DNA of 64,000 nt from positions 32,001 through 96,000 of IMG/VR virus record IMGVR_UViG_3300023174_000078; one strand, given 5' to 3'. The notes under the pieces were generated by a model. It ran no database searches. It was not told the origin of the DNA and saw only the letters and a program-made list of their open reading frames with translations. The translations under genes and the position numbers were made by a program. This DNA comes from a virus. The number at the start of each line of letters is the position of its first letter. Within the stretch, counting starts at the first letter, position 1. Shown in pieces: positions 17,758 to 58,374 of the stretch.

Positions 17758-17779
17758 GTTCTTTGATATTACCAATTTC

Positions 17780-17883: not shown

Positions 17884-18108
17884 ATGAGCTTACAAGACGA
17901 TTACTTTGATTTGGATGCCCAATTGAAGGGCGAACAGAAGAGAAAACTGCGCAGGATATGGAAAACCCTTTGCGAGGCTGAATATACAGCCGAAGAAGCG
18001 TCCGAGTGCGTGCGTCTGATAAACGCTGCGCGCAGGTTACTTGCCGACAAGCCACCGCTATTCATGTCGCGTAAAATACGGGATAAGGCCAAAGGAGCTA
18101 AACCGTGA
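17884..18108 (+). CDS. Hypothetical protein
   Basis: 74-aa ORF between RNA genes. Confidence 0.5.
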   Translation: MSLQDDYFDLDAQLKGEQKRKLRRIWKTLCEAEYTAEEASECVRLINAARRLLADKPPLFMSRKIRDKAKGAKP

Positions 18109-18179
18109 GCATTCACTGCTAGCTCGGCTATAACTAAACAACCCGTAATTCCTCGGTAAGGAAGTAATTATAATAATTT

Positions 18180-18350
18180 GAGCGTGTGGCGGAATTAGAC
18201 GCGGCCTCTGGAAGCCGAATCCTTTGATGCATCGGGGACCGGATGAAAAGTATAGCGTAAGGGGACTGACATCAGATTTTAAATCTGTAAGGCCCGATAA
18301 GCGATGAAAACACAAGCTAGCAATTGCAGGTTCCAATCCTGCCACGCTCA
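18180..18350 (+). ncRNA. 171-nt tRNA-like RNA with large internal insertion
   Basis: Acceptor GAGCGTG/CACGCTC-A; Leu-type D region TGGCGGAATTAGACGC; T arm GCAGG-TTCCAAT-CCTGC; about 120 nt between D and T arms. Confidence 0.7.
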
Positions 18351-18375
18351 CCTCTTTATTAAGCAATAACCAAAC

Positions 18376-30478: not shown

Positions 30479-32982
30479 ATGAACTCACTGGTTAACTCTG
30501 TACCAGCTTTTAATGGTTGCTTTACGCATCAGATAAAAAGATTTGTATCCTACGGCGTGTTTACGCCTGTAATTCTAGCTTCATCCGCTGCTGTAACTGG
30601 CGATGTTTTAGGAGAGCTGTATAGCAAACTGTTTCAGCTCAGCCCTTTTTTCTCTGAATCACAATTGCAACTGAGACATGTTATTAAAACCAAACTGTAT
30701 GACGACACTGAATACGGGTGAACGTCGCGAATTTGCTGCGTATCACCTACTGTACAAGCGGTCTGTATTTAATACACAAGACGACGTGATTGACCTGTTT
30801 GATATTTTATCAAACTTCACGGATTGCGTGCATGGTGATGTATGGGATGTGATTTTAGTTAATCTACGAACGCCAATATATCAAGCGGCAGGTAGCCATA
30901 TAGCAAATTATGCGTCCGCAATCCTGAATGAGACAATATGAGAAGAAAAAAAGATTACTTAGGTGATTATGTCGCTGATAGTGTAAACGATATATGTTGG
31001 AGTTGTGTGATACACATTATCACGGATATCATTTTTATGGCGACATCTCGTCCTGTTTACAAGGAAATTTATGGATTTATAGATACACATGTTTCTGATT
31101 CTGTAGGCAATATAGTTCATATAAAAATAAATAATGAATGCGATTTATAAATCTGTTAACGCTACGTATAGCCGAAAAACATGAAAACACTTTCTGATAC
31201 TGTCTGGTCTCAAACTTGGTATTGTATTCACATTTCTATATGGACCTCGATAGGCCGCGCGACTAATGCTGATACGGCGGTTTCTACGCACGAATTTGTT
31301 TCGGACGCAATTTTTGAACCTGTAGCTAAAGCTACTGGCACGCGTTACGTCGATTCAACAATATATGAAATTGTTAAATCCTAAAAAACAAATGAGTACA
31401 CACTAAATGATGAATGATAAAACTCTTTATAACTCTATAACGACGCTAGTGTCTGTTTTTGCGCTCGATGGTTTAGAAGATCATGTTTTTAGCGTTACTC
31501 GCGGCTCCTGCGCAGCTAGGTCTGTGTGGATAACTGTTATGCATCAAGTCTTTGACATTACGCACAGGGCTACAGCCGATCCTAATTATGGTATTACCTC
31601 ACGTCTTGCCAAAGTATTAAATAAAAAAATAAATGAGTAATATTTACTACTCTATTTGGACATCTATTTGCGATAATGTCTGTGGTGGCGTGGAGCGCAA
31701 TGGGCTTGACACTTTATGGGATACAGCGCGCTATTCCGTAGAGGATACTGTTTGGTTTGCTATCAGCGCCAATATCTTCGGGATTATGCCCGACGCTGTA
31801 GAAAAAACTATTTGTAACCATCTTTATGCTAAAACTTGAAAAATCCGTTTCACACTTCGCGCGTATTATGGTTCAGCCCAATATAATTGACCCCGTTAAA
31901 CATAATGCGTGGCAGGCTATTAGTGAGCAAGATTGGGAAGACGTATGGCTAATTCCTGCCGAATCGATATATACCGCCGCACGTAATAACGTGAGTGAGC
32001 TGGTCAGGAGTTTTTTGTTACACACACACACAAACCTTATTAAAATGAGTACCGATAATGAATTAAGACGGGCTGTTAACGAGATTAGCGACGCGCTAGT
32101 TTGGAAAAATTTAAGGAGCGCAATATGGTCTCATATGGAAGCTGATAGATGGTGGAGTACCCGTTTTGCGCTGAGTGACAGCATGACGGCTAAAAATGTA
32201 TGTACCGCTAACTTCTTCGTTAATTCTTACATGAATCAACAAAAATATGGATAATGTTTTATACAGAACTATTTTTCACAATGTGTGGCGTCCTGTACAC
32301 CGCTGTGTGTTGTACCGTATACAAGATAGCACAGCAAACGCTTTAATAGGCGATGTGTTTGAATCTGGATGGGTTGCTATCAGAGATGCTGCTTACATAC
32401 CTGTGGAGGATATGCTTCATCCGTACGTTTCTTTAAAATTTAATTCAATATGCGTGTAGACAATTCACCACACCCGGCAGTCATTCGCTGTATTGACGAT
32501 AAACATAACGCTTCAAATTAGACACCGCCATCGCGGTCGTTTCCCTGCGGTGAAATCCAAATTCTGCACAACATGACAATTCACGATTCTAGCGATACCC
32601 AGGTATACTACGCGATCAATAAGTACATCTGGTTCGATATCCGGGCTGCTATAAAGGATTTTATTTGTTACGACGCGTATCGCTACGTTGAGAACGAAAT
32701 TTATGATAAAGCAGACAGTGTTACATACTATTCTGTATGCGAATATGTGGAGCTGAGCCTCAAAATTTATAAATGAATAACCCGACACTTTTTGTTTCAG
32801 TCTATAACCCTCCCGGATTAATTCCCCTAGTTGGGCAGTTGCACTTAAGGTGTGCGATGAACTATAGAGACGAAGTATGGACGGCTATGTCGAATAACGC
32901 CGCCCATATTAGCAAGCGTTTAGGCCATGCGTCTTATCATACTGATCGCAAGATAGCTGAGGATTTACACCAGTACACATAG
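30479..32982 (+). other. Tandem array of about 10 diverged 67-87 aa micro-genes (one 142-aa double unit), related to the SVxx-repeat family
   Basis: ORFs at 30479, 30699, 30938, 31181, 31407, 31633, 31826, 32247, 32573, 32773; V/I every 4th residue, frequent VW/IW; C-termini ILNETI, KINNECDL, KKINE. Confidence 0.65.
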
Positions 32983-33012: not shown

Positions 33013-33363
33013 ATGAGCACAAATAAAGAAATCAAAGTCACACCAAGAGTCTGGAAAGCTATGCGCTACGCTGGAGATGGCTATGACACATACGGTAAAC
33101 AAAGAGATGGTAAAAATTATTGCGATCTCGAGACCGCAGTGACTCTAGAGACTGAATTACAGGCAGCTACAAAGGAATTAAAACTTCTGCAAAAGCAGAA
33201 CGATAAACTACTAAAAGCGCTGCGGGCCTTTACGCGATTCGGCAGCAGTCCCGGAGCAGGTGGCGGCGGAACTTTAGATTTATACACGCAAGGACAACGT
33301 GTAACCGAAAAGAATGTTCGTGACATAGCAAGGAAAGCACTAAAAGCATATGGCCCTAAATGA
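33013..33363 (+). CDS. Hypothetical protein
   Basis: 116-aa ORF. Confidence 0.55.
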   Translation: MSTNKEIKVTPRVWKAMRYAGDGYDTYGKQRDGKNYCDLETAVTLETELQAATKELKLLQKQNDKLLKALRAFTRFGSSPGAGGGGTLDLYTQGQRVTEKNVRDIARKALKAYGPK

Positions 33364-33607
33364 AGAATTCATAAAGGTAGAAACAGCATATCACACACCT
33401 CCTGGAGGTCAGCAGGTTGGTCCAGTTTCCGCAGGGGTTAAAGTGACACATGAGTTCGGTGGTATATCTGTGACATGCGATTTAGGTAGGTCACAGAAAC
33501 AGAATAAAGATATGGCTTTAGGAGCTATTGAATACTTATTAGTAGAAGCAGGATACACAGACGCCGTGTTATTTAAAAAAGATGAACATAATTCAAAAAG
33601 CAGCTGA
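33350..33607 (+). CDS. Stand-alone release-factor GGQ (peptidyl-tRNA hydrolase) domain protein
   Basis: PGGQQVG..GVKVTH..GISVTC..RSQKQNKDMAL parallels RF GGQHVN..AVRITH.PTGIVV.CQ..RSQ.KNK..A. Confidence 0.75.
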   Translation: MALNEEFIKVETAYHTPPGGQQVGPVSAGVKVTHEFGGISVTCDLGRSQKQNKDMALGAIEYLLVEAGYTDAVLFKKDEHNSKSS

Positions 33608-34052
33608 CTACGCGTTATTGGCGCATAATGGTCAGAAACGTAAAAATGGTAAGCCGTACTTCACACATGTTGAAGCTGTAGCGAACCTTGTGAACGATAA
33701 CTGGTCCAGATTGATTCCGCCCACAGCGCAAGATAACTGGAACGATTATAAAGACCATGTGGTGGCTGCGGCATATCTACATGATGTAATCGAAGATTGC
33801 GGTGTGACTAAAGATATGCTTATTGCATGCAGCTTCTCTGTGATGACTGTCGAAATTGTCGAAGCATTATCCAAGAAGCCCGGCGAGAATTACTTTGATT
33901 TCATTATGCGCATTCACGATAGTGGTGCGTTCCGTCCAGGTATAGTTGCAGTTAAACTTTGCGATCTAGAACACAATATGAGTGACTTGGATAACGGTTC
34001 ACTCAAGGATAAATACAGGCTAGCGCATTATATACTTAATTATTTTAACTGA
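33582..34052 (+). CDS. HD-domain hydrolase, RelA/SpoT-HD (small alarmone hydrolase)-like
   Basis: AHNGQKRKNGKPYFTH, AAYLHDVIED, VKLCDLEHNM. Confidence 0.8.
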   Translation: MNIIQKAADYALLAHNGQKRKNGKPYFTHVEAVANLVNDNWSRLIPPTAQDNWNDYKDHVVAAAYLHDVIEDCGVTKDMLIACSFSVMTVEIVEALSKKPGENYFDFIMRIHDSGAFRPGIVAVKLCDLEHNMSDLDNGSLKDKYRLAHYILNYFN

Positions 34053-37000: not shown

Positions 37001-37357
37001 ATATTTAAGTTCCATTTCGTAGAGAAATCCAGAACCACTACCCCGGAGTTAATTACCGCCACGCTGTCAATGTGTGATTACTACAATAGCGATACCTTAG
37101 ATATTTTTATAGATTTGAAAATGGAATTGGTTGCTGGTGTGGTCACGAGCATCGTCTGTGCGCTGTATGAAGAACGCGATCCAGCACCACGACTTCAAAG
37201 GAATAAGGAGATGGTGCAGAAAATGAAAGAGAGCGCTATCTATTACAAAAGCTTTCGGGGTAGAGCTGCGATTGTTTTAAGACGCGCGTTGTTCGCTATT
37301 CACAAAAAGATAGATAAATGCAACGGTTGGTTACAAAGATTGGCTTTTAAATTATGA
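34067..37357 (+). other. Cluster of hypothetical phage ORFs
   Basis: ORFs at 34067, 34405, 34742, 35102, 35616, 36032, 36279, 36773; several with CxxC motifs. Confidence 0.55.
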
Positions 37358-37740
37358 ATATCATTTTTTTAGATGATGACTTAAATCGTTGGAAGAGTTT
37401 TCGTTCCAAGGTGCCGCAGGCTGTACATGTAGAGACAGCTGCGGCGTGCATTAAACTTATCAAAGACACACCTGTCATTGATTGGTTATTTCTAGATCAT
37501 GATTTAGGCGGTGAAGCTTATGTGAAATCTTATCGCGAAGATTGTGGTATGGAAGTTGTGCGTTATTTGTGTGCGGAAAATCGCAACCAAACTATACATA
37601 ATATTGTTGTACATTCGCATAACGCCCCAGCCGCGCAGGAGATGTTTAATAAGTTACAAGATGCTGGCTATAAAACGCAGCTATTGCCGTTTTATAGTTT
37701 AGTTGACGCAATATCTGTAAATCTTGATGCTACGACTTGA
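37354..37740 (+). CDS. Cyclic-phosphate-processing receiver (cREC)-like domain protein
   Basis: IFLDDD, FLDHDLGG, GMEVVRYL, VHSHN motifs. Confidence 0.7.
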   Translation: MNIIFLDDDLNRWKSFRSKVPQAVHVETAAACIKLIKDTPVIDWLFLDHDLGGEAYVKSYREDCGMEVVRYLCAENRNQTIHNIVVHSHNAPAAQEMFNKLQDAGYKTQLLPFYSLVDAISVNLDATT

Positions 37741-38428: not shown

Positions 38429-38693
38429 GGGTAAGTATATCAATCATACTCAAAATGGGCCGCTTCAGCAGAAACACAAAGCGGCAGAATTGAATAAGGC
38501 AGGTGCAGAACTTCTGTTAGACACGCCTACAACGTGGGAAGAAGGACTGATCTGCGTGGTGAGTAATGGTATATTCGAAGCGGCGGCGTATGTCCAGGAT
38601 GCCCGGGATCTCGAAGATTTCTCTGAGTTCGTGTGGGACACCAGGCCGCGTGTATGGCTCAAATGGGATAGGGCTAAAGAGTTCGCTAAATGA
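38427..38693 (+). CDS. Hypothetical protein
   Basis: 88 aa; ATGA-coupled to the next gene. Confidence 0.6.
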   Translation: MGKYINHTQNGPLQQKHKAAELNKAGAELLLDTPTTWEEGLICVVSNGIFEAAAYVQDARDLEDFSEFVWDTRPRVWLKWDRAKEFAK

Positions 38694-39265
38694 ACATCTT
38701 CGCAATTTACAGATGCCCGGTCACGTCGGCCCGGCATCTTGTAGATTCCCATGTCGTGAAAATGGTATTGGAATCTGCGCAGATGCTAGCTAATTGCTTT
38801 ACGCCAGAACAACTTGCTGGTGCTGACTGTCCCAGAACGAAGGCAGGCACAGTACGCAAATATTCATATTACAATCATCCATGTAGTAAATGGGTGCGCG
38901 TGTCGCAAGAGAATATGCGCTGGTTATGTCGACATGCGCTGGCTATGGACGTTGAAAGAATTCAACGCTCAACAATCAGAATACAAGAACAACGACAATT
39001 AAGAGACCGTGGCTTACCGTATAGTGAAGCGATAGCGAACAGCACACCTGTTCCGCATCACAGCATTTCTTTTATTAATTGGGTAGTCGCTAATTTTCCG
39101 CGCAGTCTAATACCTGAAGGACCTTTGACAGAATTTGCACAGGCTATGCCAGATGAATTCAAATGTGCAGATTCTGTTCAAGCCTACCGCAACCTTTATA
39201 CGATAGGTAAAAAACATTTACATATATGGACGCGCAACAAACCTGACTGGATTAACCTATGCTAG
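38690..39265 (+). CDS. Pyrimidine dimer DNA glycosylase / endonuclease V family-like protein
   Basis: MNIF..HVVKMVLESAQML..NHPCSKWVR..N..WL..FAQAMPD..AYRNLY. Confidence 0.75.
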   Translation: MNIFAIYRCPVTSARHLVDSHVVKMVLESAQMLANCFTPEQLAGADCPRTKAGTVRKYSYYNHPCSKWVRVSQENMRWLCRHALAMDVERIQRSTIRIQEQRQLRDRGLPYSEAIANSTPVPHHSISFINWVVANFPRSLIPEGPLTEFAQAMPDEFKCADSVQAYRNLYTIGKKHLHIWTRNKPDWINLC

Positions 39266-39304
39266 ACCTTAATGATAGTTCACCCCTACTGCCCCGGCGT
39301 TTAA

Positions 39305-39517
39305 ATGAAACGATCACTTAATAATTCTGTCTGGCATTCTGTCCGTAATTCTGTCAATGAGTCTGTCCGTAATTCTGTCAGAAATTCTGCCCTGTATTCT
39401 GTCTGGGATTCTGTCTATAATTCTGTCTGGGATTCTGTCCGTAATTCTGTCAGTGGTTCTGTCTATAATTCTGTGTGGCATTCTGTCAGTAATAAAATAA
39501 ATGAAACGATCACTTAA
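39305..39517 (+). CDS. SVxx-repeat micro-protein 1
   Basis: MKRSLNN-(SVxx)n-KINETIT, 70 aa. Confidence 0.75.
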   Translation: MKRSLNNSVWHSVRNSVNESVRNSVRNSALYSVWDSVYNSVWDSVRNSVSGSVYNSVWHSVSNKINETIT

Positions 39518-39665
39518 TAATTCTGTCTGGCATTCTGTCCGTGATTCTGTCAGTGATTCTGTCTATAATTCTGTCTGGGATTCTGTCCGTAATTCTGTCA
39601 GTGGTTCTGTCTATAATTCTGTGTGGCATTCTGTCAGTAATAAAATAAATGAAACGATCACTTAA
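39501..39665 (+). CDS. SVxx-repeat micro-protein 2 (54 aa, not in ORF track)
   Basis: MKRSLNNSVWHSVRDSVSDSVYNSVWDSVRNSVSGSVYNSVWHSVSNKINETIT, translated by hand. Confidence 0.75.
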   Translation: MKRSLNNSVWHSVRDSVSDSVYNSVWDSVRNSVSGSVYNSVWHSVSNKINETIT

Positions 39666-39837
39666 TAATTCTGTCTGGCATTCTGTCCGTGATTCTGTCA
39701 GTGATTCTGTCTGGGATTCTGTCTATAATTCTGTCTGGAATTCTGTCAGTGGTTCTGTCAGGGATTCTGTCTATAATCCTGTCAATGAGTCTGTCAGAGA
39801 TTCTGTCAGTAATAAAATAAATGAAACAAGCACTTAA
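39649..39837 (+). CDS. SVxx-repeat micro-protein 3
   Basis: 62 aa, same architecture. Confidence 0.75.
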   Translation: MKRSLNNSVWHSVRDSVSDSVWDSVYNSVWNSVSGSVRDSVYNPVNESVRDSVSNKINETST

Positions 39838-40009
39838 TAATTCTGTCCATAGTTTTGTCAGTGATTCTGTCTTTAGTTCTGTCCGTAATTCTGTCAGAGA
39901 TTTTGTCAGTAATTCTGTCCGGTATTCTGTCAGTGATTCTGTCTGGGATTCTGTCTTTAATTCTGTCAATAATTCTGTCAGTAATAAAATAAATGAAACG
40001 ATCACTTAG
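39821..40009 (+). CDS. SVxx-repeat micro-protein 4
   Basis: 62 aa, same architecture. Confidence 0.75.
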   Translation: MKQALNNSVHSFVSDSVFSSVRNSVRDFVSNSVRYSVSDSVWDSVFNSVNNSVSNKINETIT

Positions 40010-40181
40010 TAGTTCTGTCCGTAGTTTTGTCAGTAATTCTGTCAGTAATTCTGTCAGTGGTTCTGTCTGGGATTCTGTCTGGCATTCTGTCCGGTATTCT
40101 GTCAGTGATTCTGTCTGGGATTCTGTCTTTAATTCTGTCAATGAGTCTGTCCGTAATAAAATAAATGAAACAATCACTTAA
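39993..40181 (+). CDS. SVxx-repeat micro-protein 5
   Basis: 62 aa, same architecture. Confidence 0.75.
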   Translation: MKRSLSSSVRSFVSNSVSNSVSGSVWDSVWHSVRYSVSDSVWDSVFNSVNESVRNKINETIT

Positions 40182-40365
40182 TAATTCTGTCAGTGGTTCT
40201 GTCTGGGATTCTGTCAGTAATTCTGTCAGTAATTCTGTCAATAATTCTGTCAGTGATTCTGTCAGTGGTTCTGTCTGGGATTCTGTCGGTGATTCTATCT
40301 GGGATTCTGTCTATGATTCTGTCCGTAATTCTGTCAGTAATAAAATAAATGAAACAATTACTTAA
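40165..40365 (+). CDS. SVxx-repeat micro-protein 6
   Basis: 66 aa, same architecture. Confidence 0.75.
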   Translation: MKQSLNNSVSGSVWDSVSNSVSNSVNNSVSDSVSGSVWDSVGDSIWDSVYDSVRNSVSNKINETIT

Positions 40366-40585
40366 TAATTCTGTCGATGATTCTGTCTGGGATTCTGTCA
40401 GTAATTCTGTCGACGATTCTGTCTGGGATTCTGTCTGGGATTCTGTCTTTAGTTCTGTCTGGAATTCTGTCTGGGATTCTGTCCGTAATTCTGTCAGTGG
40501 TTCTGTCTATAATTCTGTGTGGCATTCTGTCCGTGATTCTGTCAGTAATTCTGTCCGTAATAAAATAAATGAAACAATCACTTAA
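40349..40585 (+). CDS. SVxx-repeat micro-protein 7
   Basis: 78 aa, same architecture. Confidence 0.75.
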   Translation: MKQLLNNSVDDSVWDSVSNSVDDSVWDSVWDSVFSSVWNSVWDSVRNSVSGSVYNSVWHSVRDSVSNSVRNKINETIT

Positions 40586-40817
40586 TAATTCTGTCAGCAA
40601 TTCTGTCTGGAATTCTGTCCGTAATTCTGTCAGTGGTTCTGTCTATAATTCTATCAGTGATTCTGTCCGGTATCCTGTCAGTAATTCTATCAGTGATTCT
40701 GTCCGGTATCCTGTCAGTAATTCTGTCAATGATTCTGTCTGGTATTCTGTCTGGGATTCTGTCCGTAGTTTTGTCAGTAGTTTTGTCAGTAATAAAATAA
40801 ATGAAACAATCATTTAG
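40569..40817 (+). CDS. SVxx-repeat micro-protein 8
   Basis: 82 aa, same architecture. Confidence 0.75.
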   Translation: MKQSLNNSVSNSVWNSVRNSVSGSVYNSISDSVRYPVSNSISDSVRYPVSNSVNDSVWYSVWDSVRSFVSSFVSNKINETII

Positions 40818-41049
40818 TGATTCTGTCTGGGATTCTGTCAATAATTCCGTCCGTGATTCTGTCCGTAATTCTGTCCGTGGTTCTGCATATAATTATGTCG
40901 GTGATTCTGTCTGGCATTCTGTCTGGCATTCTGTCCGTGATTCTGTCCGTAGTTTTGTCTGGGATTCTGTCGGTGGTTTTGTCTGGGATCCTGTCAGTGA
41001 TTCTGTCAATGAGTCTGTCCGTAATAAAATAAATGAAACAATCACTTAA
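40801..41049 (+). CDS. SVxx-repeat micro-protein 9
   Basis: 82 aa, same architecture. Confidence 0.75.
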   Translation: MKQSFSDSVWDSVNNSVRDSVRNSVRGSAYNYVGDSVWHSVWHSVRDSVRSFVWDSVGGFVWDPVSDSVNESVRNKINETIT

Positions 41050-41293
41050 TAATTCTGTCAGTGGTTCTGTCTGGGATTCTGTCAGTAATTCTGTCAGTAA
41101 TTCTGTCAATAATTCTGTCAGTGATTCTGTCAGTGGTTCTGTCTGGGATTCTGTCTGTAATTCTGTCTGGGATTCTGTCTGGAATTTTGTCTATAATTCT
41201 GTCTGGAATTCTGTCAGTGGTTCTGTCAGGGATTCTGTCTGGCATTCTGTCTGGGCTTCTGTCAGTAATAAAATAAATGAAACAATCACTTAA
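41033..41293 (+). CDS. SVxx-repeat micro-protein 10
   Basis: 86 aa, same architecture. Confidence 0.75.
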   Translation: MKQSLNNSVSGSVWDSVSNSVSNSVNNSVSDSVSGSVWDSVCNSVWDSVWNFVYNSVWNSVSGSVRDSVWHSVWASVSNKINETIT

Positions 41294-41426
41294 TAATTCT
41301 GTCCATAGTTTTGTCAGAGATTCTGTCAGAGATTCTGTCTGGGATTCTGTCTGTCATTCTGTCTATAATTCTGTCCGTAATAAAATAAATGAAACTACAC
41401 GATTACAAATTAGAACCTCAAAATGA
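41277..41426 (+). CDS. SVxx-repeat micro-protein 11 (49 aa, not in ORF track)
   Basis: MKQSLNNSVHSFVRDSVRDSVWDSVCHSVYNSVRNKINETTRLQIRTSK; overlaps the start of 41389. Confidence 0.7.
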   Translation: MKQSLNNSVHSFVRDSVRDSVWDSVCHSVYNSVRNKINETTRLQIRTSK

Positions 41427-41817
41427 AACATTAGCTGTACTACGTAAACATGGTTTCAATTTGTCGCGCATGATTGCCTACAGCAAATCTACATACTTAT
41501 CAATGCATCCGGAGCATCAAGTAGTGTTCAATGCCAATATTTTTACTCCGCAAGGTAAAGCTTGGTGGGGTGACTTGGATCTAACGAAAGATTCAGAAAA
41601 TCTACAGCTTGCAGCTGCCGATATCGGTTCCACTTTATACGTGCTACGTGAATCGGATGGTCGCTTTGGCAATGAGCAGCGTACTGTGTCAGAATTAGAA
41701 AAATTAGCCGTCAAGAAATTTGAAGTTAAGTCAAAACAAAAAAAATCAATTCAAACATGTCTACAATCTTTAGCATCCAAGGTAACACAATTTTTCTCCG
41801 CGACCCGGAGGCGATGA
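41389..41817 (+). CDS. Hypothetical protein coupled to the array
   Basis: Starts inside a final copy of the array junction (AATAAAATAA-ATGAAAC). Confidence 0.7.
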   Translation: MKLHDYKLEPQNETLAVLRKHGFNLSRMIAYSKSTYLSMHPEHQVVFNANIFTPQGKAWWGDLDLTKDSENLQLAAADIGSTLYVLRESDGRFGNEQRTVSELEKLAVKKFEVKSKQKKSIQTCLQSLASKVTQFFSATRRR

Positions 41818-42857
41818 ATTTCCACGATAAGCTTCCACCGGAAGTTTACGCGATTAAAGAGCACCCTATCACTGAGGAGTTGTTTTTAGATAAGATTGAT
41901 TGTTTTAATATACCGCACAAGAGATACGGTAATAATGACAGGTACGCCCAACGTATCTTGAACAGCTTCAAGCTACGCAATCAAGCGACCGGTGTTCTCT
42001 TGTGTGGGGAGAAGGGGTCCGGTAAGTCGCTACTTGCCAAAACTCTAGCCAATATCGCGCAAGCAGAGGGGTTGCCAGTTATCGTGGTTAACACACCACG
42101 CACTGGTGACGCTTTCTTCCAGCTTATTCAGCGGATTGAGCAGCCCGCTATTATTCTCTTTGATGAGTTCGAGAAGGTGTACGACTCAGACAAACAGAAA
42201 GAAGTTCTGACGCTGCTTGACGGCATCTATCCGTCCAATAAATTGTATGTCTTCACGGTCAACGATAAGTGGAAGCTGGATGTGAACATGCGCAACCGCC
42301 CCGGACGTATTTTCTATTCCATTGACTACAAAGGCATCGAAGAAAAGTTTATTCGTGAGTACTGCGAAGACAATTTGAATGATAAGTCGCAGGTCGACCA
42401 TATCGTTCGTATCAACACACTGTTCAGTGCGTTTAATTTTGATATGCTGCAGGCTTTGGTTGAGGAAATGAATCGTTATAATGAAGATCCATTTGAGGCG
42501 ATTCAGTTGCTGAATATCAAACCCGAGTACGAAGATGCCACAACCTTCACTACGTTTATTTCCGTCGATGGTACGCCTGATTCGCATATCACATGTGACC
42601 GGGACTTTAATGGTAAGCCTTTGGGCGACCGTGTGAAAATCTATTACCATAAGTATAGGCGTCTGGATATTTCCAAGGAACACTGTGATAACGAAGCCGA
42701 CTGGCTGTCCGCTGAGTTTGTTCCAACGGATTTGGTTTCCGTCAGTAAGGACGGTAAAACTTTCTTGTTTAAGAATAGCAAAGGCGAATCTGTTACGCTG
42801 CAAGCTAAAAAGAGTGATACCGCATTCGATTACCGCACTTTCGCTTACGCGAGCTAG
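41757..42857 (+). CDS. AAA+ ATPase
   Basis: Walker A GEKGSGKS, Walker B ILFDEFEK, NRPGRI. Confidence 0.9.
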   Translation: MSTIFSIQGNTIFLRDPEAMNFHDKLPPEVYAIKEHPITEELFLDKIDCFNIPHKRYGNNDRYAQRILNSFKLRNQATGVLLCGEKGSGKSLLAKTLANIAQAEGLPVIVVNTPRTGDAFFQLIQRIEQPAIILFDEFEKVYDSDKQKEVLTLLDGIYPSNKLYVFTVNDKWKLDVNMRNRPGRIFYSIDYKGIEEKFIREYCEDNLNDKSQVDHIVRINTLFSAFNFDMLQALVEEMNRYNEDPFEAIQLLNIKPEYEDATTFTTFISVDGTPDSHITCDRDFNGKPLGDRVKIYYHKYRRLDISKEHCDNEADWLSAEFVPTDLVSVSKDGKTFLFKNSKGESVTLQAKKSDTAFDYRTFAYAS

Positions 42858-42904
42858 TGTGCATTAAAAACAAATCAAACAAATTAAACAAAAGTCATAC
42901 AATC

Positions 42905-43942
42905 ATGGACGCGAAACAGCAAAAAGAAAAGATCTCCGAACTCACTCCTGAGCAAAAGGCTAAGATGCCAGAATATGTTAAGAAGTGGATTGCTATCGGC
43001 AACGACACTTCCCGGTTGAATTATGATCGTACTGTCGACATCATTCATGCGGTTCAGAAGCACATCCTGAAGAAAGAACCTACTCCGGTTTTGATCTTTG
43101 ATAACCCCATGGAGGCCTGGGTAGCGTGTAACTATGCCGCACACGGTCACAAGGTTAATGAACTCAAGAACTGTGTGGAGGAGTTCTTCAGTGGAAAGAA
43201 ACCCAAGTGGAAACTTGGTCAGTATGTTTCACCCTATCTCAATGGGTCATTCGCAGCACCAACGTTCGCCTTCTACGACTTTTTCAAGTTCGAGTTGGGC
43301 GTTTCGTTTGACACTACCGGTACGCCAGTCGCAGCTGCGCAAGACAACAGCGCGCTTAGCGTGGATGAACTGTATGAGATCTGGAAGAGCACCACAGAGC
43401 TTGGACTGATCTATCCAATTCACGACGTCCAAGGTGCAGCACAGGATATGTGTATCGTGTCTCAAAAACCATCGCGGGTAAAAGTTAATGAAGCCGGTGT
43501 CGTACACTGCGATGGCGCTGTTGCCATTGAGTACGAGGGGCATGGCGATATCAAGATTTATGCGCTCAATGGTGTGACTGTTCCTGATTGGTTGGCTTTG
43601 ACGCCAGCCCAGAACATCCCCGTCGAGCGGATACACGAAATTAAAAATGCAGACATTAAAGCCGAGTTTGTTCGCAAGATCGGTGTTGAGCGTTTGCTTG
43701 ACATGGGAAGCAAAGTGGACTCTTATGAGGCTCATTCTGATGAGTGGTGGCACAAGTCGCAATACGAGCTTTGGGATATGCACAACCTGTTTCCTAATGT
43801 TGAGTACGCCCCACACCTCAAGATGCTGAATCAGACGACCAAAATCTGGCACGTTGAGGCTGTATCTCCTAGTTGCAGAACAATCGAAGATGCGTTGAAA
43901 GACCGGTATGGTCGCAATGTTGACATCATTGAAATCGCCTAA
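42905..43942 (+). CDS. DUF6745-like protein lacking an internal tetrapeptide-repeat tract
   Basis: LTPEQ..YVKKWIAIG, AFYDFF, IVSQKP..VHCDGAVAIEY..IYALNGVTVP..IKNADIKAEFVRKIGVER; family recognised from memory. Confidence 0.75.
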   Translation: MDAKQQKEKISELTPEQKAKMPEYVKKWIAIGNDTSRLNYDRTVDIIHAVQKHILKKEPTPVLIFDNPMEAWVACNYAAHGHKVNELKNCVEEFFSGKKPKWKLGQYVSPYLNGSFAAPTFAFYDFFKFELGVSFDTTGTPVAAAQDNSALSVDELYEIWKSTTELGLIYPIHDVQGAAQDMCIVSQKPSRVKVNEAGVVHCDGAVAIEYEGHGDIKIYALNGVTVPDWLALTPAQNIPVERIHEIKNADIKAEFVRKIGVERLLDMGSKVDSYEAHSDEWWHKSQYELWDMHNLFPNVEYAPHLKMLNQTTKIWHVEAVSPSCRTIEDALKDRYGRNVDIIEIA

Positions 43943-44022: not shown

Positions 44023-44391
44023 ATGTCAAAATCCAAAGCAACCAAGTCCAAAGTCAATTCCAACGCCGCGCGCGCAATCCTTCACGGCGAGTGCGGTATC
44101 GTACAATCCCCCATCCCCGAGGATGCCACCGCCGTCAAGATCAAGGACAACTGCTTGATCCTGGCCGACTCCGAAACCACGGGTAACCACCACGTTCTCG
44201 ACGTCTTGCCGGGCGTTGAAGTCCTGGAGAAGGAAGGGAAGCGTTTTATGCGCAATTCCGTCCCCGCCCAGGTCCGCTGCTTACACACGGACCGGCACGA
44301 TGCCCTCGTCGTACCCCCCGGTGAATGGGAGTTCATCATCGCTCAGGAGTTCGACTACTTCGAAATGAGCAAGCGCAATGTCCGCGACTAA
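44023..44391 (+). CDS. Small His-motif protein of the type usually adjacent to DUF6745 genes
   Basis: HGE..LADSETTGNHH..H..HDALVVPPGEW..QEFD..RNVRD; strong C/G-ending codon bias. Confidence 0.7.
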   Translation: MSKSKATKSKVNSNAARAILHGECGIVQSPIPEDATAVKIKDNCLILADSETTGNHHVLDVLPGVEVLEKEGKRFMRNSVPAQVRCLHTDRHDALVVPPGEWEFIIAQEFDYFEMSKRNVRD

Positions 44392-46156: not shown

Positions 46157-46231
46157 GCCTTCGTAGCTCAGTGGTAGAGCGGCTACTTTGTAAGTAGCGG
46201 GTCGGGGGTTCGAATCCCTCCGCAGGCTCCA
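46157..46231 (+). tRNA. tRNA-Thr(TGT)
   Basis: GCTAC-TTTGTAA-GTAGC arm; CCA. Confidence 0.9.
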
Positions 46232-46232
46232 T

Positions 46233-46307
46233 GCTCCGGTAGCTCAATGGTAGAGCAGTACCCTTTTAAGGTATTTGTTGCAGGTTCGAGCCCTTCCCGG
46301 AGTACCA
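46233..46307 (+). tRNA. tRNA-Lys(TTT)
   Basis: GTACC-CTTTTAA-GGTAT arm; CCA; one mismatch in the T stem. Confidence 0.85.
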
Positions 46308-46350
46308 TTTTTCATTGGCGTATCGCCAAGAACAAAGTAGAGTAACATAT

Positions 46351-46425
46351 TCCCGGGTAGCTCAGCGGTAGAGCGAACGGCTGTTAACCGTTAAGTCGTA
46401 GGTTCAAGCCCTACCCTGGGAGCCA
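46351..46425 (+). tRNA. tRNA-Asn(GTT)
   Basis: AACGG-CTGTTAA-CCGTT arm; CCA. Confidence 0.95.
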
Positions 46426-47682: not shown

Positions 47683-49437
47683 ATGAGCTATAAAATATCC
47701 CTCTTACATGCGACGCGTGGTCGCGCCCTGCAAGCTAAAGAATGTCGTGATGCGTGGATGAGCGCCGCAAAGCATCCTGAAGACATTGAGCATATCTTTG
47801 GTATAGACGATGATGACATCGACAGTCTAACCAACATTAATACGCAAAGAGTTATTGCGGAACGCGGTAAGGGCTGCGTCGCAGCTTGGAACGCTTGCGC
47901 GAAAGCCAGTAAGGGTGATATCCTAATTCAGTTGTCGGATGACTGGGAACCCACAAAGAATTGGGATGTGGATATTCTGCGCGAATTTGAGGATGCTAAG
48001 GGGGAGCGTGTGCTAGCCATATCGGACGGGCATCGTACTGATGACCTGCTGTGTATGGCAATACTGAATAGGGCGCGGTACGAAAAGCAGGGATACCTGT
48101 TTCACCCTGAATTCTTCAGTGTTTACAGCGATAATTATTTTACTTGGGCGGCTACCAAGGACGGTGTCATAAAAGATTCTAGACATATTGTTTTCGAGCA
48201 CAAACATCCTGTGTTCAACAAGGCAGAATGGGATCCTACATATTTAGCAAGTAACGCGCAGCAAAATTATGTGCAGGGGCATGGTAAATTCTTGGAACTT
48301 ACACGCCCGGCAGGATCTAAGATTTGCTTGGCGATGATTGTAAAGAATGAAATGCATAACATGCGTAAGTGTTTGGAGTCTGTTAAAGACGTCATTAATT
48401 ACTGGGTAATTTGCGATACAGGATCTACAGATGGTACACAGCAATTCATTAAAGATCTGATGACCGAATGGAATATTCCGGGGGAGCTTCATGAGAGACC
48501 CTGGGTAGACTTCGCAACGAACAGAACAGAATCTTTGCAGCTCGCCCGCGATAAGGGCGATTACACACTGGTAATGGACGCTGATGATTATCTGGAAGTA
48601 CAGGGGGACATAAGTGCACTGCGTAATTTAAAGTTTGATCAGTATCACCTCAAGATCACGCATGGTGCGCTTGCGTACAGCCGCGTGCAGCTAGTACGTA
48701 ACGAATATGAATGGAAGTATGTAGGTGTGCTGCATGAGTATCTAGACGGTCCTAAAGACATTAAGCTGTTTCCTGCTGTTGTTCTTAACAATGTTATTAT
48801 TCGTGCGTCGGCATCTGATACCAGGAACGGATTTTCAGGGTCTAAAAAGTATATTAGTGATGCTTTAATTTTAGAGAAAGCATTACTCGATGACTCCATT
48901 GACCCCGGTCTCCGCTCACGTTATTTCTTTTACTTAGCGCAAAGTTACAGAGACGCGGGCGCGCATGAGCGTGCTATTGTAGCGTATAAGCAGCGCGTAG
49001 ATCTGGGTGGTTGGGATGAAGAGGTATACTACTCTAATTACATGATTGCGCGTCTTAAGGTTTTAATGAATTATAAGGAGGAAGAAATCATCAACTCTTT
49101 CTTGAAGGCCTGGGAAAGCCGACCTGGTCGCGTAGACGCTTTATTTGACCTGATAATTTATTTAAGAGGACAAGAGCGATTCGCGCTTGCGTGGGCGCTT
49201 GTTTCCATAGGTGTTAAAATTCCGCCGACCAACGACAATTTATTCGTGCGATTTGAGATTCAACAATGGAGAATGTTAGATGAGTATTCTATTTTAGCCG
49301 CGCGTACAGGAAATAAGGAAGAGGCAATTCGTGCCGCTAAAACCTTGCTAGAAAGTCCGTTGTCTGCCAAGCTAATTCCAGAGAATGAAAGAGAAAGAAT
49401 AGATAAGAACTTAATAGAGTTTAACAAACTACCATGA
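47683..49437 (+). CDS. Two-domain glycosyltransferase (GT2-like) with TPR C-terminus
   Basis: QLSDDW domain; ICLAMIVKNE..DTGSTDGT..MDADD; FYLAQSYRDAG TPR-like repeats. Confidence 0.85.
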   Translation: MSYKISLLHATRGRALQAKECRDAWMSAAKHPEDIEHIFGIDDDDIDSLTNINTQRVIAERGKGCVAAWNACAKASKGDILIQLSDDWEPTKNWDVDILREFEDAKGERVLAISDGHRTDDLLCMAILNRARYEKQGYLFHPEFFSVYSDNYFTWAATKDGVIKDSRHIVFEHKHPVFNKAEWDPTYLASNAQQNYVQGHGKFLELTRPAGSKICLAMIVKNEMHNMRKCLESVKDVINYWVICDTGSTDGTQQFIKDLMTEWNIPGELHERPWVDFATNRTESLQLARDKGDYTLVMDADDYLEVQGDISALRNLKFDQYHLKITHGALAYSRVQLVRNEYEWKYVGVLHEYLDGPKDIKLFPAVVLNNVIIRASASDTRNGFSGSKKYISDALILEKALLDDSIDPGLRSRYFFYLAQSYRDAGAHERAIVAYKQRVDLGGWDEEVYYSNYMIARLKVLMNYKEEEIINSFLKAWESRPGRVDALFDLIIYLRGQERFALAWALVSIGVKIPPTNDNLFVRFEIQQWRMLDEYSILAARTGNKEEAIRAAKTLLESPLSAKLIPENERERIDKNLIEFNKLP

Positions 49438-54123: not shown

Positions 54124-54336
54124 ATGAACAGACCCGTCCCATCTAATAACGCCGAATTGAGAAAGGCGGTTGATGTCGCTAATAATATCTTTGAGAATAT
54201 AGCGTCTATGCCTGAAACCTTTGAAATGTATCCTTTTTTACTAGCGAGCTACAATAGTCTGTGTAAAGGATGTACAGATCCTCGCGCCTTTAATTATGAC
54301 CCAAATGCGGAAGTAGACGATAATTCTTGTTTATGA
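54124..54336 (+). CDS. Small protein with a GCTDPxAxNY..DD.SC motif
   Basis: KGCTDPRAFNYDPNAEVDDNSCL. Confidence 0.6.
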   Translation: MNRPVPSNNAELRKAVDVANNIFENIASMPETFEMYPFLLASYNSLCKGCTDPRAFNYDPNAEVDDNSCL

Positions 54337-55943
54337 ACTTACCCTTCAAGAAAAGTTTATTCCTGGAACTGATACGCTATCCGCTGTTCGTTGATTTCGT
54401 CCGAAACACGGCAGCATTGGATATTCCTGATAATATTGAAGATAAGCATTTCCGAGGCCACAATCTGAAAAATTATAAGGCTTATTTACAAAGCAACATA
54501 ACTGTAGTTGAAGACTTACTGACGTTGTTTTTAGAGAGCTATCCTGTTTTTTGGGGGGTGGTTTTTACCATAAACGCAATGGCGGCGGAATATAGTATCT
54601 GGCAAGCGAGTGACGTGCGCAAAGCATCGCGCAGGCAGGATCATGCTATTGCAAAAATATATATTATTATTGATTGTGTTTTCCAGGCTAAGCTAGGCGA
54701 CTACGACGCTGCTCGGCTGCATCACAGAATCGATAAATTAGTTCTTGGTGCTTTGACTAGTTTCGATTTTAAGCAGCATTTGAAAGACAAGATAGGCACG
54801 TACAAAGACCAAACCCTAAGTAATTTATATAATTATGTGGTGAGTATTACTTATAGATTTGTGCCGACCGTTAAAGACTATATTATGCAAAAATTAGATT
54901 CCATTATGAGTGCTGACGATGTATTAAAGAATTATTTTGATCGTGTTGTTGTTATCAACTTAGATCGTCGGACAGACAGATGGGAGGCGATACAAGAAAA
55001 GTTCGCTAAGATTAATTGGCCATTCAAGGAGCCTGAGCGGTTCTCTGCTTACGACGGGGACAGGTTACCAGAGCCTATTGGTTGGACACACGGCAGAGGC
55101 ACATGGGGTTGTCTGCTGTCCCACAGAGAGGTACTGAGTCGCGCGATACAAGACGGACTCAATAGCGTGTTAATTTTAGAAGACGACATTTTCTTCGCGC
55201 CAGACTTTGAAACTCGAGTCATTAATTTCATCCAGGGGCTACCTGTAAATTGGGATCAGATAATGCTGGGCGGTCAATTTTTCGATAACTCTAAAGCATA
55301 CGACATTTCCCCGGAAGTAAGGAAGGTCTCTCTTTGCCACCGGTCGCACGCGTACGCCGTTAAGGGAGCATTCATGCATTACATGTATTCTAAACTGTGT
55401 GCATCTTATGGGCACGTAGACCACATCATGAACACGTTTCAGGAGCGATTTAATGTGTACACGCCAAGACACTTTCTGATAGGACAAGACGGATCTCCTA
55501 GCGACATATCCGGGGCGCAGGGTAGCCCGGATCTGCTGCGAAATCCGCCGGATAAAGATACGCCTGTGTTCGTGATAGCTCCAGATCTTGATTTGCATAA
55601 GCAAGTATTTGAATCAGATTTGCCGTTACACTTCGGTACCCTTGCACCGTCTGGAGCAAACGCACAGTTACAACATTTTGTGGACCATCCAGTTCCTAAT
55701 CTAAAATTCGCGATTTTTGAATTTTTGAATTCTAGTATCTGGTACGCTAGATCTGTGTACCCTTCTAAATACAGCACCATATTAAATCCGGAAGGATTGT
55801 TAATGGATGAGGTAATGCAGGCCAAAGGAAATCTTAATTTGATATACATTGAATCGATGGCGCAACTGCAAGAAGCGATTGCTAAATATCCCTTTGGTGA
55901 GGATTTACCATCCCAGTTTCCAGAAGACAAACGTGAAATTTAA
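54327..55943 (+). CDS. Glycosyltransferase GT25-like, with extra N- and C-terminal domains
   Basis: VVINLDRRTDRW, GCLLSH, ILEDD. Confidence 0.8.
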   Translation: MFMNLPFKKSLFLELIRYPLFVDFVRNTAALDIPDNIEDKHFRGHNLKNYKAYLQSNITVVEDLLTLFLESYPVFWGVVFTINAMAAEYSIWQASDVRKASRRQDHAIAKIYIIIDCVFQAKLGDYDAARLHHRIDKLVLGALTSFDFKQHLKDKIGTYKDQTLSNLYNYVVSITYRFVPTVKDYIMQKLDSIMSADDVLKNYFDRVVVINLDRRTDRWEAIQEKFAKINWPFKEPERFSAYDGDRLPEPIGWTHGRGTWGCLLSHREVLSRAIQDGLNSVLILEDDIFFAPDFETRVINFIQGLPVNWDQIMLGGQFFDNSKAYDISPEVRKVSLCHRSHAYAVKGAFMHYMYSKLCASYGHVDHIMNTFQERFNVYTPRHFLIGQDGSPSDISGAQGSPDLLRNPPDKDTPVFVIAPDLDLHKQVFESDLPLHFGTLAPSGANAQLQHFVDHPVPNLKFAIFEFLNSSIWYARSVYPSKYSTILNPEGLLMDEVMQAKGNLNLIYIESMAQLQEAIAKYPFGEDLPSQFPEDKREI

Positions 55944-56530: not shown

Positions 56531-57286
56531 ATGCGCATAATTCATACCCATAACGGGTTAAGACTTGGGGATAACTTAATACAACTGAATTTTCTCAGAC
56601 GAGCAAGTCAGATAAATAAGGATGTGCAGTTCATTCATTACTACAATCCGCATTTTTGTAATGGTGCGGAGCTTCTACCTTTTGTTGAGGGCTTTGAAAC
56701 GCAGATTACAATTTCGCCAGCTTCCCCGCCAGCGCACAGTATAGATTCTTGGCGCGGACCTATGTGGTATTCGCACGCGGATAGATTAGACTTTGCGAAG
56801 TTTCATTTATTCTGGTTCGCTCATTTGGCGGCAGTAATGCAGATTGTAAATCCAATTAATGACACAGAGCATTTACTTATCGACTACCCGTTACTGTACA
56901 ATAATGACGTACCGTCTTTTGACGCAGTAATCATTAATTCCCCTGCGCTGTCAGGACAGTATCATGCTTATAACGAGGACGACTACAGGCATCTTATTAT
57001 TGCGTTGCTCGCTCGCGGTTACTCTGTGCTGACTACAAAGCCTACAGATTTATGTCCTTCTGCGGTAGGGCATAACGTGGCCTGGATTGGCGCTGTAGCG
57101 GCAAATGCCAAATTGATTATAGGTACTAGCACCGGACCTAGCTGGCCTTGTTTGAATGTGAGAAATAGAGATGCTAAACACATTTTATGTCTAGATACTG
57201 AAAATGTTATCTTGACACCACGAGGTAGCGTGGCTAGGAATGTGCCGCAAGTTATCGATATTTTGGCTAAAGAAAATTTTTTATGA
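56531..57286 (+). CDS. GT9-like glycosyltransferase
   Basis: RLGDNLI N-terminus; IIGTSTGPSW. Confidence 0.5.
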   Translation: MRIIHTHNGLRLGDNLIQLNFLRRASQINKDVQFIHYYNPHFCNGAELLPFVEGFETQITISPASPPAHSIDSWRGPMWYSHADRLDFAKFHLFWFAHLAAVMQIVNPINDTEHLLIDYPLLYNNDVPSFDAVIINSPALSGQYHAYNEDDYRHLIIALLARGYSVLTTKPTDLCPSAVGHNVAWIGAVAANAKLIIGTSTGPSWPCLNVRNRDAKHILCLDTENVILTPRGSVARNVPQVIDILAKENFL

Positions 57287-58374
57287 AGCAGAACAAATAT
57301 AGTGATTTTAAGATATTTGCTTTTCCTGAGAAAGTGCAAAGTTTCAGAGATAACGTCTTAACTGCGCCCATTTATGTACGCATTAAGCCTATTAATCGTT
57401 GTAATCATGCTTGTCACTGGTGCGTGTATTCGGATGGTACACTACGACCTAAGGATCGCCCAGACAAGCATTTGAAAGCGGGTATGCACGAGACCATGCG
57501 CGAGCAGGACATCATGCCTACGGATGCCGCGCTCGGCCTCATCGATGACCTGGCTGATATTGGTACTAAAGCCGTGACATTCTCTGGCGGTGGAGAACCT
57601 CTACTTCATAAAGACATAGCTTCTATCATGCAGAGAACTTTGGATAAGAATGTAGCATTATCCATCATTACCAACGGGCAGTTACTTCAAGGGGCCCGCG
57701 CAGAGACTTTAGCGCACGCCAAATGGGTTCGTATTTCTATGGATTACACTAGCGAGAAGCAGATGGTGGAATCGCGTAATGTACCGGGGCGCTTCTTTAC
57801 TGGTGTGCTGGATAATATTAAGACCTTCGCTAAAATCAAAGATAGCAATTGTGATCTGGGCATTAATTTTATTATTACTAGAGACAATTATGAAGGTATT
57901 GTAGACTTTGCAAAACAGCTAAAGGATTGCGGCGTCGAGAACATTCGGTTCAGTCCTGTTTATGTTAGCGGTTTCAAAGAGTATCACACACCTATCGCTG
58001 CGCGCGTTGTTGAGCAGCTTTTAGAATGTCAGACTTTTTGTGATGCCAATTTTTCTATCAATACTACATACGATTTAGACAGCCCATCCAAGTCCCCGGT
58101 CAGACCGTTTAACCGTTGCTTATATGCGCAGACAACATGTGTCGTTGGTGCTGATCTGAATATCTACGCCTGCCACAATACCGCATATAGTAAGCACGGA
58201 CTGATCGCGGGTATGCAGAATAGAAAGTTTTCAGAGGCGTGGTTCTCTGATGAAGTTAAGGAGTGGCACGCCAAGTTTAGACCTTGCAACGTGTGTCACC
58301 ATGAGTGCGCTAATCATAACAAGGTTGCGCTATACGAACAATTAGCGACAGATAGTGTAGATTCATTTGTATAA
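57283..58374 (+). CDS. Radical SAM protein with SPASM-like tail
   Basis: CNHACHWC, FSGGGEPLL, C-terminal Cys cluster. Confidence 0.9.
   Translation: MKQNKYSDFKIFAFPEKVQSFRDNVLTAPIYVRIKPINRCNHACHWCVYSDGTLRPKDRPDKHLKAGMHETMREQDIMPTDAALGLIDDLADIGTKAVTFSGGGEPLLHKDIASIMQRTLDKNVALSIITNGQLLQGARAETLAHAKWVRISMDYTSEKQMVESRNVPGRFFTGVLDNIKTFAKIKDSNCDLGINFIITRDNYEGIVDFAKQLKDCGVENIRFSPVYVSGFKEYHTPIAARVVEQLLECQTFCDANFSINTTYDLDSPSKSPVRPFNRCLYAQTTCVVGADLNIYACHNTAYSKHGLIAGMQNRKFSEAWFSDEVKEWHAKFRPCNVCHHECANHNKVALYEQLATDSVDSFV

Follow-up and report, generated by a model that had tools for sequence, protein, structure and literature searches.

The window analysed here is a stretch of 64,000 nt, one strand, from the IMG/VR virus record IMGVR_UViG_3300023174_000078, an uncultured lake phage (positions 32,001 to 96,000 of a 121-kb record), and the subject of this account is an array of 11 short, overlapping open reading frames (ORFs) on its + strand, which together fill window positions 39305-41426 in the ORF list. 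Each of these mini-genes encodes a predicted protein of 49-86 aa with a common layout, i.e., a head resembling MK(R/Q)SLNN, a run of 7-18 tetrapeptides of the form S-V-x-x (tetrads) and a tail reading NKINETIT; the tail of the last ORF differs (NKINETTRLQIRTSK). In window coordinates, the units are as follows.

39305..39517, + strand: mini-gene 1, 70 aa, 14 S-V-x-x tetrads
39501..39665, + strand: mini-gene 2, 54 aa, 10 tetrads
39649..39837, + strand: mini-gene 3, 62 aa, 12 tetrads
39821..40009, + strand: mini-gene 4, 62 aa, 12 tetrads
39993..40181, + strand: mini-gene 5, 62 aa, 12 tetrads
40165..40365, + strand: mini-gene 6, 66 aa, 13 tetrads, its first 123 nt shared with unit 10
40349..40585, + strand: mini-gene 7, 78 aa, 16 tetrads
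40569..40817, + strand: mini-gene 8, 82 aa, 17 tetrads
40801..41049, + strand: mini-gene 9, 82 aa, 17 tetrads
41033..41293, + strand: mini-gene 10, 86 aa, 18 tetrads, used for the structure and docking models
41277..41426, + strand: mini-gene 11, 49 aa, 7 tetrads, with the deviant tail NKINETTRLQIRTSK

Adjacent mini-genes share 17 nt, each step from one to the next shifts the frame by +1, and every ATG is immediately preceded by a TAA. The junction, AATAAAATAAATGAAAC, occurs in 11 exact copies (0.05 expected; 11 copies were reached in 0/100 shuffles), and no further copy lies outside the array in the 121-kb record. Its 11th copy opens a 142-aa gene at 41389, which is therefore chained to the array. 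The unit spacings are 196, 148, 172, 172, 172, 184, 220, 232, 232, 244 and 112 bp, every one of them 12n+4. A programmed +1 frameshift fusing the units was considered and rejected, given the TAA before each ATG in the incoming frame and an ACT-TAA context that offers no cognate slip. Within the units, Tandem Repeats Finder counts 159 copies of a 12-bp period; TCTGTC starts 125/148 in-frame 12-mers, position 12 is a T in 144/148, and variation lies at positions 7-11, being strongest at the opening base of codon 3 (position 7) and of codon 4 (position 10). The resulting vocabulary comprises 40 distinct tetrapeptides and 47 distinct 12-mers. No internal stop is found in the 11 units and no two units are identical, while exact blocks are shared between units 6 and 10 (123 nt), units 1 and 2 (94 nt), units 1/2 and 7 (69 nt) and units 3 and 10 (53 nt). 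All of this bears out what the first-pass annotation, which was made from the letters and the ORF list, had described: the 11-ORF architecture with its overlap, frame step, TAA and 12n+4 spacings, the near-invariant TCT GTC, the lack of internal stops and of identical units, and the recurring blocks, here measured at 53-123 nt.

Judging from sequence similarity, free-standing tetrad arrays of this kind are widespread in uncultured phages. A phmmer-type search returned 34 metagenomic proteins (handles beginning with P) with an S-V-x-x tract among 259 candidates; of the 20 that were inspected, 10 carry the tract before a ...VPSFDG..WRLH domain, 2 carry it behind an LTxxQ...KW..IGLST domain and 6 are short and stand alone. 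A search of IMG/VR with a mini-protein gave 58 pattern matches, 26 of them confirmed, and 24 loci (handles beginning with L), which include the near-duplicates L131/L132, L134/L135/L144, L137/L138, L142/L147 and L146/L149. Free-standing mini-genes are the setting of the tract in 14 of these loci, so that the first-pass annotation's suggestion of a tblastn for similar arrays found its answer here; the VPSFDG family accounts for 7 loci, and proteins with a DUF6745 domain for 3. The number of mini-genes is at least 26 in 7 kb in L128, 20 in L134/L135, 8 in L148 and L143, 5-6 in L137, L138, L150 and L145, 3 in L136, L140 and L144, and 2, dispersed, in L142 and L147. Like the window, the arrays of L128, L134/L135, L148, L143, L137/L138, L150, L145, L136 and L140 consist of tandem chained S-V-x-x genes (36-112 aa), often adjoined by a repeat-less DUF6745-like gene and its partner (see below). 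They differ from it in their junctions, where neighbouring genes overlap by 4, 8 or 11 nt or stand 2-10 nt apart instead of overlapping by 17 nt, in their lineage-specific heads and tails, in their Ser-Val codons and in the order of genes relative to the DUF6745-like core. L143 has four flanking genes in common with the window (52-73% identity). The mini-proteins also give tblastn or phmmer matches to the tracts of L131, of L139 and of P0003/P0028-type proteins. Other searches yielded nothing of use: megablast of 38600-42900 against phage records gave no match, and neither did tblastn of a mini-protein against phage records, probably owing to the low-complexity filter; the 17-nt junction, scanned against viral contigs, matched just once in each of the 80 loci listed, by chance and in AT-rich DNA; and Pfam and PHROGs gave only sub-threshold chance matches to the mini-proteins.

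The second scaffold that carries the S-V-x-x tract has an N-terminus reading MCEFFSC... and a conserved C-terminal domain reading ...W.Y...YPFQ..LW..GLVPSFDG..WRLH.G. It occurs in L129, L130, L133, L141, L146, L149 and L151 and in P0001, P0002, P0005-P0009, P0012, P0024 and P0029, and the members scanned match no Pfam family at E <= 0.1.

Comparison between lineages indicates that the array is a set of real protein genes and not a DNA satellite. The open S-V frame alone is weak evidence for this, because the units can be read without a stop in a second + frame (ILSx) and in two minus frames as well. The Ser-Val pair, for its part, is encoded by TCT GTC in the window, TCA GTA in L128, TCT GTA in L134, TCT GTT in L143, AGT GTT in L131, TCG GTG in L139 and AGC GTT or AGC GTG in L130, L133 and L151, with TCA GTT and TCC GTG as further codon pairs among the lineages, and it is nearly uniform inside each lineage. 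Since these codons vary between lineages and are uniform within them, it is the amino acids that are selected, and the DNA of each array is homogenised (concerted evolution). Stop codons at variable positions, whose depletion the first-pass annotation had put forward as a check, are absent from codon 3 of the tetrads (0 seen vs 4.85 expected with independent base positions, P about 0.006), a rough figure because the test presumes independent positions and units, which duplicated blocks violate. The same annotation had held that homologous arrays freely gaining stops and frameshifts would speak for a satellite; the free-standing arrays in 14 loci keep the S-V frame open. The start contexts are AT-rich and lack a Shine-Dalgarno motif, which is the norm for the long genes of this phage too. 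Additionally, a profile built from the 11 mini-proteins matches five ORFs elsewhere in the window (251 ORFs searched; E from 6e-7 to 1.3e-3, whether or not the bias filter was applied):

30938..32459, + strand: older cluster of five ORFs of 67-142 aa that match the mini-protein profile, with no 12-bp repeat at the DNA level

One of the five retains a ...KINN tail, and together they are candidate older, diverged paralogues of the mini-genes. The surrounding segment (30479-32982) holds about ten ORFs of 67-142 aa, mostly abutting or overlapping, and the five that match the profile have a hydrophobic residue at every fourth position. As for non-coding signals, an Rfam search of 38500-42000 found no RNA family, promoter-like sites in the array region number 11 (shuffle mean 13.3, thus no excess) and terminator-like sites 7 (shuffle mean 4.5). 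At six junctions (window 39791-41030) there is a weak sigma-70-like match, i.e., CTGTCA or TTGTCA, 16 nt and TAAAAT, agreeing at 9-10/12 positions.

Given exact inter-unit repeats of up to 123 nt, the array could be real in kind, with a unit number and order that are products of short-read misassembly. This explanation is compatible with the functional reading developed below, and it is possible, if on the whole doubtful. Two runs from two studies of lake or freshwater metagenomes (X1 and X2) contain 0.72 and 0.70 of the sampled words, and their pieces are at least 99% alike to the window, X1 possibly being the source sample; such agreement of array pieces argues against an artefact. Their flanking contigs, on the other hand, end at 39331 and restart at 41288, and the pieces internal to the array measure only 90-251 nt. 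The 12n+4 rule and the frame are kept at 11/11 junctions, which random mis-joins would not ensure, although in-register joins between repeats would. Comparable arrays on many independent contigs further speak against misassembly as the origin of the arrangement. In X3 and X4, low-depth contigs represent a relative 90-99% alike to the window, with differing array pieces and two odd joints, which hints at strain-level variation.

The array is linked to a known protein family by genes in its vicinity, the DUF6745-like gene and its partner beginning about 1.5 kb downstream. The neighbouring genes are the following.

38690..39265, + strand: Pyr_excise/phrog_624-like protein, 191 aa, directly upstream of the array
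41389..41817, + strand: 142-aa gene of no known family, chained to the array via junction copy 11
41757..42857, + strand: AAA+ ATPase (PF00004, phrog_2376)
42905..43942, + strand: repeat-less DUF6745-like protein, the predicted docking core, 345 aa from the ATG, with an alternative GTG at 42857
44023..44391, + strand: conserved partner gene of DUF6745 genes, 122 aa, whose L131 homologue matches phrog_27831 (unknown function)

In L131 and L139, the DUF6745 domain (PF20530) follows a tract within one and the same protein (E 1.6e-55 and 5.3e-19, respectively). The 345-aa protein of the window agrees with these two proteins in its N-terminal LTPEQ..KW..IG motif and in its C-terminal part but has no tract (blastp E 5e-17 to L139 and 3e-9 to L131; phrog_31813 is common to it and L131). 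Full-length alignment gives it 41-52% identity with repeat-less proteins of L136, L137, L142, L147 and L148 (blastp E 2e-94 to L136:4489-5466 and 1e-94 to L137:3213-4223), and the two of these that were scanned, from L136 and L137, clear the PF20530 cut-off with 31.3 and 34 bits. Among 1.84 billion cluster representatives, the relatives of the 345-aa protein number 2221 at E <= 0.001, of which 114 reach E <= 1e-30. A period-4 tract lies at residues ~75-90 in at least 10 of its best 150 relatives, a lower bound because QVxx and NLxx tracts escaped the search pattern. In alignment A1, the tract of the tract-bearing protein P0098 (residues 74-131) corresponds to a linker of ~22 residues in the window protein (81-103).

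The internal tracts of DUF6745 proteins (L131:5776-6855, L139:5698-7017, P0098 and P0152) resemble the mini-proteins in their period of four (S-V-x-x, Q-V-x-x or N-L-x-x), in their variable copy number (~50 tetrads in P0152), in being modelled as one helix and in the company of a ~120-aa partner gene. The 148 tetrads of the window follow the period-4 pattern of these tracts (a small residue, V/L/I and two variable residues). They depart from the tracts in position: instead of lying between the N-terminal and DUF6745 domains of one polypeptide, they are distributed over 11 separate genes that each supply an ATG, a head, a tail and a stop of their own, and the core itself lacks a tract. By these sequence criteria, the mini-gene tract is a detached form of the internal tract of DUF6745 proteins.

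Gene order points in the same direction. In an all-against-all blastp comparison of the ORFs of the 24 loci and the window, a homologue of the partner (~110-126 aa) occurs in 11 loci and the window. Its usual place is immediately upstream of the array, as in L134, L135, L136, L137, L138, L142, L147 and L148 (8/14 mini-gene loci), and it adjoins the tract-bearing DUF6745 gene in L131, L132 and L139. A repeat-less DUF6745-like gene stands beside the mini-genes in L136, L137, L138, L142, L147 and L148 (6/14 loci) as well as in the window. In L140, L142 and L147, too, a Pyr_excise/phrog_624-like gene is found close to mini-genes. Arrays in the other loci do not share the AAA+ ATPase or the 142-aa gene as neighbours, and the neighbours of an ATPase homologue in phage Pumpernickel (tRNAs, RtcB) include no tetrad genes. 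A viral-contig search for loci related to the DUF6745-like protein gave no pattern match, and a full-text search found no literature naming DUF6745.

Structure models were made for the tract both inside a DUF6745 protein and on its own. The AlphaFold2 model of P0098 (100 aligned relatives) has a mean predicted local distance difference test score (pLDDT) of 88.6 and a predicted template modelling score (pTM) of 0.77; its tract forms one helix (residues 74-131, pLDDT 59-69), flanked on either side by a well-modelled globular part. Searches with the whole P0098 model, as opposed to its globular domains singly, gave no match at E <= 0.001 in the Protein Data Bank (PDB) with Foldseek, and only long-helix matches (Z <= 6.9, residues 72-133) in a wide VIA-align search. 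The 86-aa mini-protein alone is likewise modelled as one helix (residues 2-85, pLDDT 71.7, pTM 0.33), which answers the first-pass annotation's call for a structure prediction of the monomer. In complex models of the 86-aa mini-protein with the DUF6745-like core, the interface score ipSAE reaches 0.84, 0.65 and 0.83 in three runs (median 0.83), compared with 0.02 for the best control, and pLDDT of the partner chain in the complex model is at least 77. The interface residues of the core in the best run (67-80 and 102-138, among others) flank the site at which its relatives carry their tract. In the same run, tetrad positions 1-2 contact the core in 34/36 cases and positions 3-4 in 20/36 (Fisher p = 2e-4), a pattern that, within the model, fits a conserved Ser-Val docking stripe and an exposed variable face. 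Binding of the mini-protein to the DUF6745-like core is thus a prediction that the model supports, with a register that is not fixed.

Taken together, these observations suggest the following explanation. The 11 mini-genes would be translated in a chain by termination-reinitiation at the 17-nt overlap, and each product would be one long α-helix built of S-V-x-x tetrads, as the model predicts. They would represent the tract that most tract-bearing relatives keep between the N-terminal and DUF6745 domains, here detached and multiplied. The mini-proteins would bind the DUF6745-like core in trans through the invariant Ser-Val stripe, leaving the two variable residues exposed, so that one core and its ~120-aa partner could gain many alternative surfaces or lengths. 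New variants would arise by slippage in steps of 12 bp and by unequal recombination or gene conversion between units, processes that would also hold TCT GTC uniform throughout the array; slippage and inter-unit recombination are proposed because lengths change by 12n, blocks are shared and codons are uniform. Here the first-pass annotation, which had proposed a diversification system producing a library of variable proteins, is upheld as to genuine small protein genes whose 12-bp length steps and shared blocks fit slippage and recombination, but not as to a library function or the roles it named for it. The joint reading, in which 11 chained and translated single-helix proteins are detached DUF6745 tracts that bind the repeat-less core in trans and are diversified by slippage and recombination, is considered the probable one, with room for doubt.

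A role can be suggested only by analogy, that with gp54 of mycobacteriophage Tweety (see below): the most likely one would be counter-defence or the binding of some other target, e.g., a variable target of the host or of a rival phage such as a defence system. In its fullest form, the proposal would be one of split combinatorial recognition, in which the DUF6745 core and its partner are armed in trans with interchangeable helix adaptors diversified by slippage and recombination. This extension is tentative and, as it stands, rather unlikely; were it correct, one phage could cover many variants of a defence system or other target at once without reverse transcriptase or Cas. If the mini-proteins do dock, they would represent a new viral way of keeping a standing repertoire of binding surfaces, and they would offer a handle on the function of DUF6745.

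Several points weigh against the joint reading, in addition to the roughness of the stop-codon test. The helix models are of moderate confidence only. The calibration of the docking score, whose ipSAE mark is reached by 58/80 solved complexes and 2/110 mismatched pairs, holds roughly, as alignments made for this analysis were used. The three docking runs share "at least 0%" of their contacts, i.e., no fixed contacts, and the register and pose are therefore not reproducible. The membership of the window's 345-aa protein in the family is below threshold when scored directly (19.3 bits, E 7.4e-4, residues 196-284; cut-off 27 bits), and a six-frame family search of the record for PF20530 returned nothing, as it did for the control genomes. 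Near-duplicates bring the number of independent loci below 24, and in 6/14 mini-gene loci neither core nor partner is present in the available DNA, many of these loci being cut by contig ends. No contig of the other runs (X1-X4) bridges the array, and the number and order of units therefore rest on a single assembly. Lastly, no phage-bearing RNA run is listed among the sequencing runs.

Some of these points would suit mini-proteins that act alone, as helical decoys, inhibitors of host factors or self-associating fibres, their link to DUF6745 reflecting no more than the shared ancestry of a mobile repeat module. The tract does occur in an unrelated scaffold, that of the VPSFDG proteins (7/24 loci and 10/20 proteins inspected), and therefore moves between contexts; the six loci without a core and the docking pose that varies between runs are also in keeping with stand-alone action. 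This reading is nevertheless judged unlikely, in view of the partner and/or core adjoining the mini-genes in 8/14 loci and the window, and of a docking score that stands at 0.83 against 0.02 for the best control and concerns the very site at which relatives carry the tract.

A further reading takes the units for cassettes, silent or semi-silent, whose sequence is moved by recombination into a gene that is expressed, on the model of pilin-type antigenic variation. Frequent recombination or conversion is indeed indicated by the blocks of 53-123 nt common to non-adjacent units and by the single codon pair, but each unit comes complete with a conserved ATG, head, tail and stop and is linked in the chain to the units beside it, the arrays of other lineages likewise retain complete starts and stops, and a cassette would find no 12-bp repeat to receive it at the tract site of the DUF6745-like gene, all of which makes this reading very improbable. 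Least likely of all, to the point of being hardly credible, is a non-coding element (a satellite, protein-binding iterons or a small-RNA array) whose open frames are by-products of a stop-free 12-mer: the constancy of TCTGTC even at wobble positions and the two + and two minus frames that are open would agree with it, but Ser-Val is kept across lineages despite codon changes that include TCN vs AGY serine, the same tract lies in-frame inside Pfam-recognised proteins, starts and stops are conserved in the S-V frame only, diverged paralogues exist without any DNA repeat, and neither an Rfam family nor an excess of promoter-like sites over shuffles was found.

Other features of the window concern the phage and its host more generally. 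This is a large phage with many auxiliary genes, nearly all of its genes lie on one strand, and 6/10 large proteins scanned have no PHROG match. The AT-rich start contexts without a Shine-Dalgarno motif suggest that reliance of the host on this motif is unlikely; the host is probably one without sigma-70-type or Shine-Dalgarno signals. Six tRNA genes (Arg-tct, Met, Leu-taa, Thr-tgt, Lys-ttt and Asn-gtt) are located at window 17682-19145 and 46157-46425. At 33350-34052, an 85-aa protein consisting only of an RF-1 GGQ domain (PF00472, 42.4 bits, cut-off 35) overlaps the start of a gene for a 156-aa RelA/SpoT-type HD_4 protein (PF13328, 32.4 bits, cut-off 27.2), an alarmone-hydrolase-like gene that deserves mention because the analogue Tweety gp54 counters a (p)ppGpp-synthetase defence. 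A 128-aa cREC_REC protein (cyclic-phosphate processing receiver, PF20274, E 1.2e-17) is encoded at 37354-37740, 1 kb upstream of the array, and its L143 homologue is 70% identical. Downstream, glycosyltransferase-like and radical-SAM-like genes (PHROGs) are found at 47683-49437, 54327-55943 and 57283-58374.

Among known systems, both clustered regularly interspaced short palindromic repeats (CRISPR) and diversity-generating retroelements were considered and set aside. A CRISPR-like system is at odds with a 12-bp period and the absence of spacers. Diversity-generating retroelements resemble the window in that variability is directed to particular codon positions in a phage protein; the window differs from them in lacking a template/variable repeat pair and in varying by 12-mer copy number and block shuffling. 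The 12-bp period and the lack of a detectable reverse transcriptase count against such a system: a search with PF00078 over the 121-kb record (completeness about 67%) yielded 0 matches, the controls matching in 3/14 genomes, in agreement with the first-pass annotation's view that no reverse transcriptase is needed.

The closest published analogue, which is not a homologue, is gp54 of mycobacteriophage Tweety. According to its published description, gp54 contains 48 tetrapeptides of the type A-A-x-x, each specified by a 12-bp unit in which bases 1-6 are invariant, and variation is concentrated in the first two bases of the codons for residues 3 and 4; the repeat is present in 48 copies in Tweety, 26 in Che8 (gp57) and 15 in PMC (gp51), from which the authors infer selection for variation (Pham et al., 2007, PMC2884959). 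A 2022 review (PMC9262239) reports that mutants escaping the Phrann gp29/gp30 (p)ppGpp-synthetase defence map to gene 54 and have an altered repeat number. On this published account, the window and gp54 have in common a 12-bp repeat with six invariant bases and variation in residues 3-4. They differ in that the tract of gp54 is A-A-x-x, GC-rich and internal to one protein of 374 aa, whereas that of the window is S-V-x-x and forms separate mini-genes. Homology of the flanking domains finds no support, as gp54 has no DUF6745 match in Pfam and hhalign of alignment A1 against gp54 gives a probability of 0.05.

The first-pass annotation had known of no description of such an architecture, and in this it was partly right: a 12-bp tetrapeptide tract had been published for gp54 and later tied to counter-defence, while a literature search found no published description of free-standing tetrapeptide mini-gene arrays. 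The array thus appears to belong to a known kind, that of phage proteins with hypervariable tetrapeptide tracts, in a split and arrayed form that appears to be undescribed in print. As far as these published accounts go, hypervariable tetrapeptide tracts were known from one studied case, Tweety gp54, in which repeat number tunes counter-defence. The present comparison indicates that a tract like that of gp54 is very widespread, within a family that is large and uncharacterised (2221 cluster representatives match the window's DUF6745-like protein at E <= 0.001), and that several phage lineages have detached the tract and amplified it into arrays that number up to dozens of mini-genes.

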